Below are positions 5,384 to 49,229 of a stretch of 64,000 nucleotides of DNA, one piece after another (the stretch's first letter is position 1; every line of letters begins with the position of its first letter). Position numbers and translations under genes: made by a program. The notes under the pieces are model-generated. The model was not told the DNA's origin and did no database searches. It saw only the letters and a program-made list of their open reading frames with translations. The DNA comes from Eledone cirrhosa (taxonomy: Eukaryota): positions 88,412,001-88,476,000 of the forward strand of contig OZ024746.1 in NCBI GenBank assembly GCA_964016885.1. Reading direction: 5' to 3'.

Positions 5384-5845
5384 TATTAGGATTTGTGCCG
5401 TGAAATAGCGATGTATAGTATATCCTTTTTAAAATCAGCTTCTCTTGCCAAAAAAAGAAGTAAGTGACATAGTCACTACTTTACAAATGATAGAGCAATG
5501 TCTTCAAAATATTTTTAATTAAACATACGGTATATTGCCAAATATACTATACATACATTCGTGTATACATCGCTATTTCAGAGCACCAATCCTAATTTCT
5601 AATTTTTGCTGGACCGGAAATCGCTCTGTAACATCAGTTCCTGATTATTACTGGAATTCTATAAGAATCCAGCTTCTATATGTTTTGGCAAATGCGGGAA
5701 GTACGATGTTCTGAGGCTCGTCAATAGCGTGAAACAGAACCTGTCAACTTCTCTCCCTTCTTTTGCCGAAAAATGATAGCGCAATGTCTCCAAAATGTTT
5801 TTCATCAAACATACGGTATATCGCCAAATATACTATACACACATT
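5384..5845 (+). mobile_element. HHR-bearing non-coding partial-tandem element (family B, degenerate copy) with 5' inverted segment
   Basis: Direct repeat aaatgatag.gcaatgtct.caaaat at ~5506 and ~5772. 5384-5415 is inverted relative to 5565-5597. Homologous to 48838-49229. Degenerate HHR gtt-CTGAGG..GAAA-cagaacctg-TC-aac at 5708-5748. Flanked by (TA)n/(GA)n. Confidence 0.6.
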
Positions 5846-6140
5846 TATATATATACATATATATATATATATATATATATATATATATATATATATATAT
5901 ATATATATATATATATATGAATATATATATTTGACCTCTATAACGTATGTTAATTGCTCTGGTCTTATTTTAGTCCATTGAGCGCTTGCCGCATATCTCG
6001 AAAATTGCGTTTCGCTTTAATTTGGACCACACCCGAAATACGATCTCGCTGAAATGATATATATATATATATATACATACATATATATATATATAGTGAC
6101 GAAACATAAGTCAATTGCATGAACTCATAATCCTTTATTT

Positions 6141-6196
6141 ACTGTTATATATGTTTCGATGATAGCCATTGAATGGATATGAGCTCATCAGGCAGT
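6141..6196 (-). ncRNA. Type I hammerhead ribozyme motif
   Basis: Minus strand: actgc-CTGATGA-gctcatatccattcaatggctatcatc-GAAA-catata-TA-acagt. Stem I actg/cagt. Lies in a ~170-bp island between (TA)n tracts. Confidence 0.65.
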
Positions 6197-9019
6197 TAGT
6201 CAGTTCTTAGATACGCCAGCTCTGTTATAGTGTTGATGGTATCAGAGCCTTGGAACACACACATATATATATATATATATATATATATATATATATATAT
6301 ATATATATATATATATATATATATATATATATATATATACATATATATTACACCAGAATCGTTTTCTCTATTATAATGAATCTTGCGTCCAGAATCGAAT
6401 ATACATTATAGTCTGAATGATTCAGTGGGGAACGCCACATTGCCACCGATATAAGATACGGCTGTATATATTTCATTTCTCCATTTCAAAATGATTCAGA
6501 TATAAAGCTTTGAATGTGACATACCTTAGGGACGGATAATCCTATTTTTTTTTATATAAGAAGGCATGTTGTGTCACATTGTCAATACACGTTTTCAAGT
6601 TAAACGTTACCAATTCAAAAACAGCACAGGTGCACAAACGCACATATACTGTATCTCCCTCTCTCTCCCTCTCTCTCTCTCTCTCACTCTCTATCTCTCT
6701 CTCTCTCTCTCTCTCCCTCTCTCTCTCTCTCTCCCTCTCTCACATGTGAGGATAGATCGAATACAATAAATAGATAAATAGATAGATTGATATGTGTGCA
6801 CATATTCTAAATTATTGAAGCCGTGGGTGGATGCCTCCATGTTTCGAATAATAGAGTAATACATCTAATTACAAATACGTTTCCATAATACAGCTGCAAT
6901 CGATATTGGAGACGGAGTCTGTACAATTTTTCTGAACAAATGGTCAGAAAACAATATGCCACAACAGGAAATATACGAATAAAGTTAATGCTATATACAA
7001 TTATATATTACTACTACAAAGGCTAACACCAGGTCATTTATTTTGTAGATTAAGAATGATAATTCAGTTTTAAATATACCATTCCTAATTAGAAATGGAT
7101 TGCAAACCCAACTGTTGATATATCTAAATTATCAGACAACAATGAAGGATTCCATTCACTGAGACCTACATAAAGAACCACGGAGATTCTAATTTAAGTT
7201 GATATTTATATAGATTATACATAAGGAAAGTTACTGATGAGCTATATATATATATATACATAGGGAGTATTGAAATCACATAAGACTGTTTAAATCAAAC
7301 CAATCGACTGCATTTAGCTAATTCAGGCATCAAAATGGTCATGTATTCTGCGAGAAATATCAAATATATATTTTTCAGAACCACTGTCTGCCTCTGAAAA
7401 TAGAAACCAAACCTTTAGGAAATACAAGCCTTGATATTGAAAAATATATGGGACAATGTCGTGTGGAAGAATTTTGTTTTATCATATCTCATCTTGATTT
7501 AAATTGACGTAGGATGAATTATGTTTCAGGAAAGAGAAATCTGATTATATCTGACGGTAGTCTACACAAATATAACTCATAATTCAAATTGAACATTCCT
7601 TTTCAAATTAACTATCCTCCTTTTCAAACTAACAATCCAACTAAGTATTATAAATCTCAAAGATCATAAGTGAAATGGCTGAAAATGTTTGAAATATTTA
7701 GTTCATTCGTTTTATTTTCCTTCCTTACTAACGGGGTCGATAACAATATACAAACCAATTATTTTTGTCTAATTAATCAAACATATATCACTACTAAAAT
7801 TGTACTCCGTGCCACAATTTGACTGTTCTGAATTCGATGAACATCAGCACAATATAATGGACGCCGTGTAAAAATGGTAGATCTCATATATGGCTATCCA
7901 TTGCGCTATTCACACGCATATTTGCACTCTCATAATGTAGTGACAAGAAGTTAATTCTGGTGAATGCTTCTATCAAAGTGCATATATTGCATGCGGTTGT
8001 ATGGCATCTTAAAGGTTCATACTGCCAATCATCTATTAGAAAAATAATAATGATGCCATTCTTAACATATTCAGCTTTACTAGAGTAAAATCTAGAAAGT
8101 GTAGAAAATATATCATAAGTCAAACCATATACGAAAATGTTATATTCGGATGCAAATGTAATACATATGTCCTATTCATTATGTTTGATGCAAAAAGCAA
8201 TGAAATACGCCACAATGTGTTAACGTATTGGTTCAGTGGACTCTTTAATGTTAAGTAATATTGGCAAATAAGAATTTCATTGCACGCCACATGACACATG
8301 CACACCCAAAACTCGACTGATAGTCTAACAATGTATTGACTGACCTATATGCAACACAAATAAATCATATACTACTCCAAAGAACACAAATACAAAAAAG
8401 AAATAAAATAAAATGAGGCTATCAAATGTGATGAGACAAATCAATTATATAACTAAGAATATAAGATACATCGTCTGCCACACTAAAATCATTCAAAAAA
8501 CGTAATTGGATTTCGTGAGATGTGAATCAGGCCAATAAGCCATAAGCTTATTGACAGAAATGATGTTGTCGTTTTGCATTATTTCTGATGCTATTGCAAT
8601 GGCATCTACGGATGCTGCTACATTGAAAATTCTTGCTGCTATTGCTGTGTAATTAATCGAAAACATCCAAGTAGTCAATAAACCATGAATGTTCAATGCC
8701 ACCGCAAGGGAACGGAAAATACGCTAAGCTAGCAAATGACTGCATATAACAGGCTGCTATATTAGGAACAAAGCGAAATGGAACTACTGGATACGTTATG
8801 CTTCTCAGTTGATTCAACAGGGAACATATTTTCCAATTATATTTCAACTTGAAATTTATAATAAACCATTATGCAGTAATTGTGATTTATGTGTACACAT
8901 TGTGTCACACAGAGACGTGCATGCAAAACATGTGTTTAATGCATAAACATACGCACACAGACACACAGACACAAACACACACACATACATATAAACATAT
9001 ATATGTATGTAGGTGTGTG

Positions 9020-47067: not shown

Positions 47068-47806
47068 ATAAGTATGTATATATGTATATAGACGTACATT
47101 AGTATGTATATACATACATAAATGCACATATATATATATATATATGTACGTATGAGTTTACCGAACATTCATTATAATACTTGCTTTGTTTGTAAATAAA
47201 CAGCCCGAATTATTAGCCGTAAAGTGTTCGGCAACCATCGTTGCCCTTTTGTTCAACACTGACAAAAGAACGATTAACTAGTTTCTAGCTTATTAGCTGT
47301 CATCAGCACCATATACCTCCCTGTCAGTCGATTGTACGTTTGAAAGTATATACCTTCCTTATGCATATTAACGGCTGAGCTGTCTAGTTTGCATATCGAG
47401 TGAGTTACACGGCCGGGTGTAGCGAAAACGATAAATGGAACAAAATGAAATTTCATTTCTCACTCTTACTACGGCTGATACTTAAATATAAATATATATA
47501 CGCATATATATATATATATATATATATATATATATATATATATATATATATATATATATATATATATATATATATATGTATACAGACGTACAGTAGTATG
47601 TATATCCATACATACATTCGCACACACACACATACACACACATATATATATATATATATATATATATATATATATATATATATATATATATGTACGTATT
47701 GCTTTACCGAACATTCAATATAATGCTCGGTTTGTTTGTAAACAAACAGCCCGAATTATTAGCCGTACAGTGTTCTGCAACCATCGTTTCCCTTTTGTTC
47801 AACACT
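47068..47806 (-). mobile_element. Retrozyme-like element, family A copy 4 (diverged, ~1.3 monomers), HHR at 47270-47310
   Basis: ccgaacattc..aaacagcccgaattattagccgt repeats at ~47161 and ~47707. Minus strand ggtg-CTGATGA-cagctaataagcta-GAAA-ctag-TT. Confidence 0.75.
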
Positions 47807-47959
47807 TTATATATATATTTATATATATATTTATATATATATTATATATATATATATATATATATATGCAGAGGTTATATTTAATTTGTCGGGATTCAAG
47901 AAGCTTAAACAATTGTTATAACTGATATAAAGCACTCAACAAGTTAGTGGAGTAAATAC

Positions 47960-48837
47960 ACAATATATTAGACTGATTGCACCATCTAAATCGGACCTTG
48001 GCATACATAGCAAGAATATTCTAGATATAATCATACCACAACTTAAGGAAATATCTTATTTAAAATTTGGAAAGGGACTAATGAACTTATTGACTGATTA
48101 AAGGACATTAAATATAAACATAACAATAAATCCATTCAATTGGATATTGCTAATTATTACTCACCTATCACTCCTAATTTACTTAATAAAGCCCCTACAT
48201 ATGAATTTAAATATACTGATTTAACTAACAATGAAATGCACATTATCTTAGCTGCACGTAAAACATTAATTAAATTTAGCAACCACCTTTGGACTAGAGC
48301 AGATAGGGATAACAATTTCGATATCACTATGGGGTCATCGTACTCGTCGCAAATAACGGATCCTGTGGGGCTTTTTATTAACAATACTTTACATAAGAAA
48401 ATACCAGAGATGACCGGAGGTTTATATAGTGACGATATGCTATTACTTATTGAAAATAATAATAATTGTGAAATAAATAGGAAAAGAAAAGGAATTATAC
48501 AATTTTTTAATAGCTTTAATCTTAAAGTAGAAGTAGAGAATAATTATAAAATAGTTAATTTTTTAGATGTCACTTTAAACCTTAATACTAGTCTTTATTA
48601 TCCATTTCATAAAATCAATGAGAATTTAAACTATGTTAACTTTAATTCCAATCACCCCAGATGCGTTAAAAACACTATTGTAAATTATGTGCAGCAACTT
48701 ATTTCTAGAATTTCAGCGAATAAAAATATATGTGTAGATAAGGCACAATATTATAACGAAGCGTTAAGTAGAGCAGGCTATAGTAATAACATTAAATACA
48801 TTGATAATAAGGATGTGCCAATTAACCATAACTATTA
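47960..48837 (+). pseudogene. Naiad-type PLE reverse transcriptase fragment
   Basis: RLIAPSKSDLG..SKNILD, DIANYYSPI, FDITMGSSYSSQITDPVGL, GLYSDDML, KIVNFLDVTLNL, YVNFNSNHP and YNEALSRAGY match Naiad RT motifs. Frameshift and stop upstream of 48140. Confidence 0.85.
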
Positions 48838-49229
48838 TTTTAGAAAATTTAAAGTAAGTGAGACTGTCACTACTCTAAAACAATAGCTTAAGGTCTTCGA
48901 AATGCTTTTAATTAAGCATACAATGTATTGCAAAATACCCTATATATATATATACATTCATATATATATCGCTATTTCAAAGAACCAATTCTAAATTTCA
49001 ATTTCCGCTCGACCGGCAACCGGTCTGTATAATCAGTTCCTGATTATTACTAGAATTCTATAAGAATCAAACATTCTTAATTTTCACTAAACAGATGGAG
49101 TAGTTAGCTTTGATAAGTACCGAAAAGTACGCAACAGAGCTCTGTCAGCTTTATATCCCCTGTTTTAGAAAATTTAGAGTAAGTGAGACTGTCACTACAT
49201 TAAAACAATAGCGTAAGGTCTTCGAAATA
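48838..49229 (+). mobile_element. Retrozyme-like unit, family B (~325-nt monomer, ~1.2 copies) abutting the Naiad RT
   Basis: ttttagaaaattta.agtaagtgagactgtcactac...taaggtcttcgaaat at 48838 and ~49163. HHR 49106-49150: agct-TTGATAA-gtac-cgaaaa-gtac-GCAA-cagagctctg-TC-agct. Confidence 0.7.

Follow-up and report, generated by a model that had tools for sequence, protein, structure and literature searches.

The closest described relatives of the elements reported here are the metazoan non-LTR retrozymes of PMC7229834, which, in the available parts of that paper, are non-coding, low-GC tandem units a few hundred nt long with one type I hammerhead each, occur as dispersed oligomers and as long arrays, and have PLEs as their proposed helpers. 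A mollusc (mussel) example is among them, and so is an axolotl retrozyme that, like unit A below, has a weak, palindromic helix III and a helix II with a U-U mismatch at its base. A preprint by Li, Clavereau and Pollet (bioRxiv 10.64898/2026.07.22.740005) likewise describes animal retrozymes, present as monomers, dimers and multimers, as non-autonomous PLE derivatives. Autonomous PLEs with tails (PMC11167929, PMC8557442, PMC3846280) are reported to start copying at two sites whose spacing equals the tail, to cut and extend both strands and so leave head-to-head inverted 5' copies, to carry the tail often on one end only, and to prefer AT-rich targets. Among Chlamys PLEs such as MRC1 (PMC8557442), ORF-less, multicopy head-to-tail insertions mobilised by PLEs are also described. 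The units analysed here resemble all of these systems. The kind of element is already known and the central idea of a sequence-only reading of this DNA, retrozymes mobilised by PLEs, is in print (PMC7229834; bioRxiv 10.64898/2026.07.22.740005); the new data lend it partial support, and a literature search found no description of a cephalopod retrozyme.

Non-coding hammerhead units in the window

The window is a 64,000-nt stretch of the Eledone cirrhosa genome (GCA_964016885.1, contig OZ024746.1, positions 88,412,001 to 88,476,000), and all coordinates below are positions within it. As to the host, protein searches yielded only hints of a mollusc-associated or cnidarian kind. It holds, as the sequence-only reading had stated, three unrelated non-coding hammerhead units: A (424 nt), B (~318/325 nt) and C (482 nt). 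Their arms, like the PLE fragments, show the (TA)n borders and inverted architecture that had been described, and most end at one of two positions per family, termed sites 1 and 2.

The four claimed A copies are four hammerhead-bearing arms (cores 16160+, 16756-, 17271+ and 47306-; period 424 nt) that derive from three insertions. The first (15924-16463, plus strand) comprises ~1.3 monomers with a core at 16160 and a predicted cut after 16190, and its 3' end lies at site 2 and passes into (TA)n. The second is a head-to-head pair: a minus arm (16520-17105; ~1.4 monomers; core 16756) with a site 1 end that runs into (TA)n, and a plus arm (17098-17564; 1.1 monomers; core 17271; predicted cut after 17301) that contains the reference monomer (17098-17521) and ends close to site 2. 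The third (47056-47806, minus strand; ~1.4 monomers; core 47306; predicted cut after 47276) belongs to a diverged subfamily and has an expanded TA tract.

For B, the two copies stand, while the single ~325-nt unit resolves into two subfamilies with periods of ~314-318 and 325 nt; the window copies are 71% alike. B1 (5385-5853, plus strand) has an inverted tip (5385-5417) ending at site 2, a main arm ending at site 1, a shortened wrap (286), and a hammerhead core at 5711 with a predicted cut after 5745. B2 (48838-49228, plus strand) comprises 1.2 monomers (reference 48893-49217) with an atypical 3' end, a U3-A8 core at 49110 and a predicted cut after 49146. The catalytic core is mutated in both window copies (A9 in B1, the GAAA motif in B2) and intact in their families. 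C has the claimed period of 482 nt. Its main arm (25079-25618, minus strand; 1.12 monomers, reference 25560-25079) ends at site 1 and has a core at 25234, a long helix II and a predicted cut after 25161; its inverted arm (25602-25768, plus strand) ends at site 2, with a 109-nt tail, and passes into (TA)n.

One type I hammerhead per unit, as previously claimed, is the fold predicted by a descriptor scan together with compensatory changes. Specifically, perfect-core motifs scoring at least 12 number 5 in the window versus 0 in 12 shuffles, and compensatory changes affect 6/16 pairs between A subfamilies (5 rows) and 9/22 pairs between B subfamilies (4 rows), the 3-8 core pair included. The core is intact in 68/76 A, 29/33 B and 34/38 C loci. 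Core columns of A are 98.9% conserved versus 93.0% elsewhere, and those of B (0.989 versus 0.977) and C (0.981 versus 0.974) barely exceed the remainder; folding of the monomers gives z = -9.3, -7.6 and -4.2. A strict stem descriptor failed on A because helix II there has a U-U pair at its base, and among the Rfam matches listed at E<=1 (150 of 188), nearly all of them miRNA models on TA hairpins, there was no hammerhead. Since AT-rich DNA makes the U3-A8 descriptor noisy (57 matches, many in two unrelated satellites, with a shuffle mean of 5.3), genomic density was taken from C3-G8 cores only and amounts to ~80 motifs per Mb. Random genome stretches have the same density as the window, which is therefore ordinary for this genome and not the special cluster it had been taken for.

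Genome-wide, A, B and C are dispersed as ORF-less 1-4-mers with head-to-tail units of 424, 314-325 and 482 nt, a GC content of 34-37% and most arms shorter than 1.5 monomers. The A family counts roughly 45,000 loci and also forms a satellite of at least 47 kb with more than 100 units in an array.

Insertion anatomy

The ends of the insertions were counted over loci that were picked by similarity and not at random. Before counting, duplicate loci that overlapped were dropped, together with arms that touched the edge of a locus; the arm counts also exclude the satellite stretch L247 and 9 loci belonging to a single 2.2-kb segmental repeat. Of 352 arms, 309 end at one of the two fixed sites of their family, and 259 of these 309 are followed by (TA)4 or longer, compared with a 10% background. 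Inverted partners are present at 29/49, 22/30, 10/28 and 13/25 loci. Of 108 head-to-head pairs, 81 could be classified, and in 70 of them each arm uses a different site (p 6e-12); all four autonomous copies with both ends classed likewise have one end at each site. The tails measure 25-29 nt in B, 37 in Neptune, 59 in A, 93 in Hydra and 109 in C.

Published biochemistry accounts for such ends by internal RT initiation (PMC11167929, as far as its accessible text goes), and the two fixed ends are the PLE 'tail' signature of internal RT starts, found also in the autonomous Neptune and Hydra copies. The ends of A, B and C match those of PLE insertions, which makes it likely that the units are parasitic and are copied by a PLE enzyme. 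The idea of PLE-mobilised retrozymes thus keeps its PLE-type anatomy and its ORF-less units but loses one element, in that the ends are fixed and the free circular permutation that had been expected is not seen.

Autonomous elements and the candidate helper

The Neptune PLE at 30680-33934 (plus strand) is 5'-truncated, with an inverted pseudo-LTR, an ORF remnant at 31752-32738 (GIY-YIG) and U3-A8 hammerheads at 30863(-) and 33788(+); its left end is at site 2 and its right end at site 1. The 777-aa Neptune ORF, read by eye, has the marks of its clade, DKG, a CX2-5CxxC linker and CCHH in a C-terminal GIY-YIG, and GIY-YIG and RVT_1 Pfam matches are found for Neptune. This Neptune is very young and intact: besides the 777-aa ORF, no fewer than 80 copies share an identical stretch of 326 aa. 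Hydra ORFs are near-intact.

The sequence-only reading had described Neptune and Naiad fragments with hammerheads and inverted ends of their own, of which Neptune stands and Naiad gives way to the Hydra clade. Naiad, marked by an N-terminal endonuclease, DKA and no canonical hammerhead (PMC8557442, in its available sections), was rejected for the RT at 48098, since in its relative L105 (743 aa) the endonuclease is C-terminal, the motif is DKT and a canonical hammerhead precedes the ORF. Relatives of this RT have an RWK-like motif, DKT, a C-terminal GIY-YIG without CCHH, CxxC and CxH, and a (TA)n target, and the CxCx5C linker is complete in L098 and L106. Judged by its motifs, the RT at 48098 belongs to the Hydra clade, a call made by reading the translations of L093, L098, L105 and L106 by eye against PMC8557442, in which Hydra elements are described as favouring (TA)n and carrying canonical hammerheads.

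The Hydra-clade fragment to which this RT belongs (47859-48835, plus strand) consists of an inverted pseudo-LTR tip (47859-47970) and an RT fragment (47968-48835) and is joined in the same sense to B2. The window also holds a Hydra-like endonuclease C-terminus with a 3' end (42340-42938, minus strand); it is 34% alike to the Hydra ORF, and a degenerate hammerhead lies near 42470. Fusions between retrozymes and PLEs comprise two with Hydra in the same sense (one fetched with a Hydra query), none in the opposite sense and none with Neptune. The two same-sense fusions hint at the helper, and the (TA)n preference and canonical hammerheads of Hydra elements (PMC8557442) point the same way. The fusions could also have arisen when retrozymes inserted into old Hydra copies and a deletion came later. 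A Hydra enzyme is favoured as helper at slightly better than even odds, Neptune is a distinctly weaker candidate, and another PLE would be a fairly remote choice.

Template and mechanism

The available data are compatible with a model, which we consider likely, in which a PLE enzyme copies the ORF-less hammerhead units from two internal start sites, with a ribozyme-made circle as the probable template. Copies with at least two hammerheads, or satellite arrays, would be transcribed, the hammerheads would cut, and a monomer would be ligated into a circle; for this step a circle seems somewhat the better prediction, and an uncut multimer retains an appreciable share. A is probably cut as a dimer because its helix III consists of one pair and a palindromic tetraloop. 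Judging from insertion anatomy and from PMC11167929, in its accessible parts, the PLE protein would then nick both (TA)n strands and prime them at different sites, one strand at site 1, the second at site 2, which would yield a head-to-head pair in which a single arm carries the tail. As the insertions themselves display, copying runs on across the cut site and stops at variable 5' positions after 0.1-4 monomers; some insertions may later grow into satellites.

The crossing of the cut site is what defines the template. A has 158 crossings versus 4 stops and C has 57 versus 4, with 21 A and 5 C arms crossing at least two cut sites, so the template is either a circle or an uncut multimer. Cut linear RNA as template, a candidate under which 5' ends should accumulate where the hammerhead cuts, was rejected, as no significant excess is found (A 4 versus 2.0 expected, P 0.15; C 4 versus 1.6, P 0.08; B none); the apparent C excess was absent in 13 new loci of a targeted search.

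The strongest alternative, to which we grant a considerable though less than even chance, holds that uncut linear multimers from tandem copies or satellites are the template, that the hammerhead serves RNA processing only or is a passenger, and that copying proceeds without a circle. In the anole PLE, insertion is reported not to need hammerhead cutting, with uncut RNA as the main substrate in vitro (PMC11167929, in the text available), which counts toward a linear template; the satellite, 47 kb or longer, could be a source of multimers. That most arms fall short of 1.5 monomers also suits it, as do the heterogeneous neighbours in the A 4-mer L015, which differ at up to 9 subfamily-diagnostic sites and for which a single circle therefore does not account. 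Against it stand the dispersed multimers, whose neighbours mostly differ at 0-1 diagnostic sites and mostly share rare alleles (11/15 neighbouring A pairs versus 4.6% between loci), whereas adjacent satellite monomers of A are 91-97% alike; the conserved core with its compensatory changes; and the consideration that linear copying with 5' truncation would only shorten a multimer, so that length would have to be regenerated. As regards cutting itself, only 1/9 predicted retrozyme dimers cleaved in vitro according to the accessible portion of bioRxiv 10.64898/2026.07.22.740005, which speaks against the preferred model.

A second alternative reads the units as pseudo-LTRs or long 3' UTRs of undiscovered autonomous PLE families represented mostly by 5'-truncated copies, and is very unlikely. 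Their ends do look exactly like PLE ends, and the window contains such a case in family D (27497-27981, minus strand; core 27593), a likely Hydra-type pseudo-LTR or 3' UTR that is ORF-linked and not a retrozyme, with Hydra ORF matches in 6/20 loci. Moreover, the pseudo-LTR comparison covered two of many PLE families, one Hydra and one Neptune (~40,000 and 39,000 first-look candidates exist). A, B and C showed no homology to either of the two, which counts against the preferred model. Against the pseudo-LTR reading, monomers follow one another head-to-tail without an ORF between them in the arms that cross at least two cut sites, and the sequence beyond site 2 is the remainder of the monomer. 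An ORF lies upstream of the motif in 0/100 A, 0/49 C and 0/31 B2 cases, compared with 24/31 for the Neptune motif, and a PLE ORF adjoins the 5' junction of 2/352 arms, in the middle of the ORF or at its end, neither of which is a pseudo-LTR junction. The longest Met-ORFs are 51, 33 and 83 aa, the last antisense, open in 19/21 young copies and without a Pfam match, and no PLE protein match was found over the units, which lack protein coding as had been claimed. A, B and C are thus supported as non-coding hammerhead units and not pseudo-LTRs of ORF-bearing PLEs, and for the copies seen today this alternative is largely refuted; an origin from an ancestral pseudo-LTR would be compatible with the preferred model.

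Least likely of all is satellite DNA spread by DNA-level duplication or rearrangement in TA tracts with the hammerhead as an inert relic, which would suit the large A array, the rearrangement-prone palindromes and TA tracts and the dead cores of both window B copies, but which is contradicted by the fixed ends, the use of a single site by each arm and 5' truncation to varying extents, all marks of retrotransposition, and by the PLE-type inverted tip (L343) that opens one end of the A array region.

Implications

The preferred model, copying by a PLE enzyme probably from a circle, is supported by unusually clear genomic traces of the likely copying route in a known kind of element, and bears on the identity of the enzyme that mobilises animal retrozymes and on the reason for hammerheads in PLEs. 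ORF-less substrates whose start sites are mapped occur in this genome alongside the very young intact Neptune and the near-intact Hydra ORFs, which opens helper specificity, the one-site-per-strand rule and the use of circles to the in vitro PLE assay already published. The findings further suggest that tens of thousands of unannotated repeats in the lineage are ribozyme elements unseen by Rfam. More speculatively, and on present evidence doubtfully, animal retrozymes may be obligate parasites of specific PLE clades, with Hydra enzymes copying ribozyme-made circles here from one start site per DNA strand, in a dimeric rolling-circle reaction with two primers; if so, the helper could be recognised by the length of the tail, and this genome would rank, at roughly 2 x 10^5 hammerheads, among the richest ribozyme reservoirs reported.

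Comparison with known systems

Cleavage and circles were demonstrated for the retrozymes of PMC7229834, whereas the hammerheads here are predicted from sequence. At 482 nt, C exceeds the 150-450 bp range given there, and the U3-A8 core of B2 differs from the retrozymes described; the available text of that paper mentions neither dual fixed ends nor inversions nor insertion into (TA)n, all of which are present in A, B and C. Most Chlamys elements are described as being without canonical hammerheads, and their non-autonomous members generally resemble the autonomous partner at the 3' end (PMC8557442, available sections), unlike A, B and C with respect to the two families compared. PLE tails elsewhere belong to ORF-bearing elements and measure 30-40 bp (PMC11167929, PMC8557442, accessible parts), compared with 25-109 nt here, and the in vitro PLE work (PMC11167929, in the same parts) found no start-site difference between strands, whereas here the arms use one site each in 70 of 81 pairs. 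The preprint (bioRxiv 10.64898/2026.07.22.740005) covers, in its available text, 31 vertebrates, 3 insects and one coral but no mollusc; it rests on co-occurrence and on homology to pseudo-LTRs, and it discusses local amplification by unequal crossover. Here, where no pseudo-LTR homology was found in the two families compared, it is the insertion anatomy that points to PLE enzymes and to multimers arising from retrotransposition.

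Insertion signature

The new data support well a reading of A, B and C, three families of ORF-less hammerhead units (retrozymes), as real and abundant elements that would be mobilised by Penelope-like elements (PLEs), as the sequence-only reading had proposed, with the enzyme and RNA steps remaining putative. All three bear the PLE insertion signature. Specifically, 309 of 352 arms (contiguous copy stretches) end at one of two fixed sites, which lie at monomer positions 415 and 50 in A, 482 and 109 in C, 77 and 102-106 in subfamily B2, and near 86 and 112 on the reference of subfamily B1. 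(TA)4 or longer stands at the end of 259 of these 309 arms against 10% by chance, a count that is inflated because B and C have TA-like sequence at site 1. Head-to-head inverted partners occur at 29/49, 22/30, 10/28 and 13/25 loci; 81 of the 108 pairs have both ends at fixed sites, and 70 of those 81 use one site each (p 6e-12 vs one half), as do all four autonomous copies in which both ends could be assigned to a site (window Neptune, L138, L111, L095). Frangieh et al. (PMC11167929) showed for a PLE protein that the two strands of AT-rich DNA are both cut and extended, and that reverse transcription begins at two positions within the RNA, the distance between them being the genomic tail; a tail at a single end only is on record for PLEs (PMC8557442, PMC3846280). 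Insertions longer than one monomer, previously described as permuted, thus owe their shape to fixed internal starts rather than to free permutation.

The window, from a 3.0-Gb genome, has 33% GC and is rich in (TA)n runs. An abundant SINE-like family, possibly of octopod type, is often inverted across (TA)n (22876-23037, 35019-35427, 43140-43248, 43994-44167, 54727-55006, 59029-59324, 60314-60484, 63493-64000), is tandem at the right end with a 199-bp period, and may also be mobilised by PLEs. A 41-bp minisatellite (51492-52353) holds ~20 copies with 95% matches.

Hammerhead motifs and fold

A descriptor scan written for type I hammerheads (at most one mismatch per helix, score >=12) recovered five perfect-core motifs from the window, against none from 12 shuffles; hammerhead families were absent among the 150 Rfam matches listed. 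Here A is present as four arms from three insertions (period 424 nt), C with a period of 482 nt plus one inverted arm, and B as two copies, 71% alike, from different subfamilies (periods ~314-318 and 325 nt), both with core mutations not found in their families. Hammerhead-like motifs of other families lie at 24745(-), 6191(-), 22627(-), 11231(+), 26629(+), 7234(+) and 20378(+), the last with a relative at 56792-57165; several are truncated or degenerate, two have U3-A8 cores, and many further types are present in the genomic loci examined. Family E (12525-12590(+), 26106-26238, 42985-43129) keeps helices I-III of a hammerhead-like fold, with A replacing U4 of the core in 18/23 matches across loci. 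Antisense to C, an 83-codon ORF (25150-25398(+)) is open in 19/21 young copies, gives no Pfam match and is probably a chance occurrence.

The hammerhead fold of A and B appears to be under selection. In few and related rows with structures drawn by hand, both sides changed in 6/16 pairs of A (five rows, subfamilies plus a diverged relative) and in 9/22 pairs across four subfamilies of B (four rows), against 0-2 in slid controls. The double changes include the 3-8 core pair of B, C-G in B1 and U-A in the other three; U3-A8 is an already described natural variant (PMC3088659). Core columns of A are 98.9% conserved vs 93.0% elsewhere; the gap is small in B and C, whose samples are more uniform. 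Monomers outfold shuffles (z -4.2, -9.3, -7.6). Helix III of A is predicted as a single pair that closes a palindromic tetraloop; amphibian hammerheads of this type are reported to work as dimers (PMC7229834).

Abundance

The families are dispersed genome-wide. First-look searches returned candidates, which are not copy numbers: 2,373 and 3,507 for A, 1,346 for B2, 1,031 for B1 and 2,500 for C (best copies 95-99% identical). Among 60 evenly spaced 10-kb stretches, biased to the largest contigs, A occurs in nine, giving ~45,000 loci (95% interval 20,000-85,000), a B relative in one and C in none. Leaving out the one stretch inside a satellite array, the other 59 hold 48 C3-G8-core hammerheads (63 if that stretch is counted), against a shuffle mean of 1.9. 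The density is ~81/Mb, which extrapolates to 160,000-335,000 in the genome from this large-contig sample; 126,247 are reported for axolotl (PMC7229834). Since five hammerheads in 64 kb match this density, the window is typical and no special cluster.

One sampled stretch met an A satellite, contiguous over at least 47 kb (G000:C28 ~109.95-110.05 Mb; L338-L343, L247), in which each 10 kb holds 15-24 intact cores; in a stretch 26 kb to the left, A repeats start from an inverted tip lying within (TA)n. Elsewhere (L006-L012, L017-L019; G000:C4 ~349.89-349.92 Mb), a 2.2-kb tandem unit combines a Neptune-like fragment with an A insertion, the two having been amplified together. A diverged relative (L200:7000-7950, L088) keeps the hairpins and dual ends with different stems, and the A family is therefore old.

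Pseudo-LTRs, template and helper

That A, B and C are merely pseudo-LTRs of ORF-bearing PLEs is rejected: a same-sense PLE ORF ends within 1.6 kb upstream of 24/31 Neptune hammerheads, vs 0/100 A, 0/49 C and 0/31 B2 motifs of the commonest types, only 2/352 arms adjoin an ORF, and arms spanning at least two cut sites lack an intervening one (A 21/173, C 5/63). The earlier separation of non-coding units from pseudo-LTRs thus holds. In contrast, family D (core 27593) is a likely pseudo-LTR, because Hydra ORF matches occur in 6/20 loci.

Copies run through the predicted cut site in 158 cases for A and 57 for C, with four stops there in each and no significant pile-up; B gave 52 crossings and no stops, counts that include cross-matches between subfamilies. 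The template RNA would therefore be continuous there, re-ligated or uncut. Neighbouring A monomers have a rare allele in common in 11/15 pairs vs 4.6% between loci, and inverted arms in 8/19 pairs (three families pooled), while adjacent satellite monomers are only 91-97% alike. This fits one circle read repeatedly, but also a homogeneous multimer or later local duplication, and L015 is heterogeneous between its monomers. Against a circle counts that hammerhead cutting is reported dispensable for a PLE in vitro (PMC11167929); in its favour, truncating linear copying would not regenerate length, and yet the core stays conserved. On balance we lean slightly towards an RNA circle.

Regarding the helper, the reverse transcriptase at 48098 had been labelled Naiad, wrongly: its family (40,317 candidates) includes a 743-aa member with Hydra motifs and a C-terminal endonuclease, whereas Naiads have the opposite domain order, are described as lacking canonical hammerheads (PMC8557442) and survive in cephalopods as remnants. 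The window Hydra fragment joins B2 in the same sense without a TA spacer, and at L110 a near-complete Hydra ORF joins A through a short, TA-like junction; neither opposite-sense Hydra fusions nor Neptune fusions were found among the arms examined. Template switching inside a Hydra particle could explain such fusions, as could insertion plus deletion.

The Neptune family (L137-L142; window 30680-33934) is very young, with at least 80/123 scored copies identical over 326 aa, which fits the youth of C. It has a 777-aa ORF, a 4.84-kb tandem unit, an upstream ORF of no assigned function, and a long (TG)/(TA) microsatellite in its pseudo-LTR. An older Neptune-like fragment (62061-63027; 30-63% identity to the young family, short inversion) is also present. 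Named relatives of the Neptune protein sit in bivalve-symbiont assemblies, probably as host carry-over.

Comparison with known systems

No direct homology of A, B or C to the Hydra and Neptune families compared was found. Some features are nevertheless shared: helix II and the tail are long both in C and at Hydra ends (tails of 109 and 93 nt), and a short tail together with a U3-A8 core likens B to Neptune. In the literature searched, without most subscription papers and Repbase, we found no description of cephalopod retrozymes: the giant squid genome paper tabulates 235 Rfam hammerhead-1 matches, with no analysis in the available text (PMC6962438), the available part of PMC8967140 nowhere mentions ribozymes, and cephalopod Naiads appear in the supplement of PMC8557442. 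Non-LTR retrozymes with circular RNAs are reported from coral, mussel and axolotl in a study that proposes PLEs as their likely helpers (PMC7229834), and a 2026 preprint (bioRxiv 10.64898/2026.07.22.740005) argues that animal retrozymes are non-autonomous PLE derivatives, from 35 genomes, none molluscan, with one of nine dimers cleaved. The kind of element is thus already known; the counted insertion signature and the Hydra hint are what these families, whose host the sequence-only reading took for a cephalopod, add, together with testable substrates adjoining intact candidate helpers.
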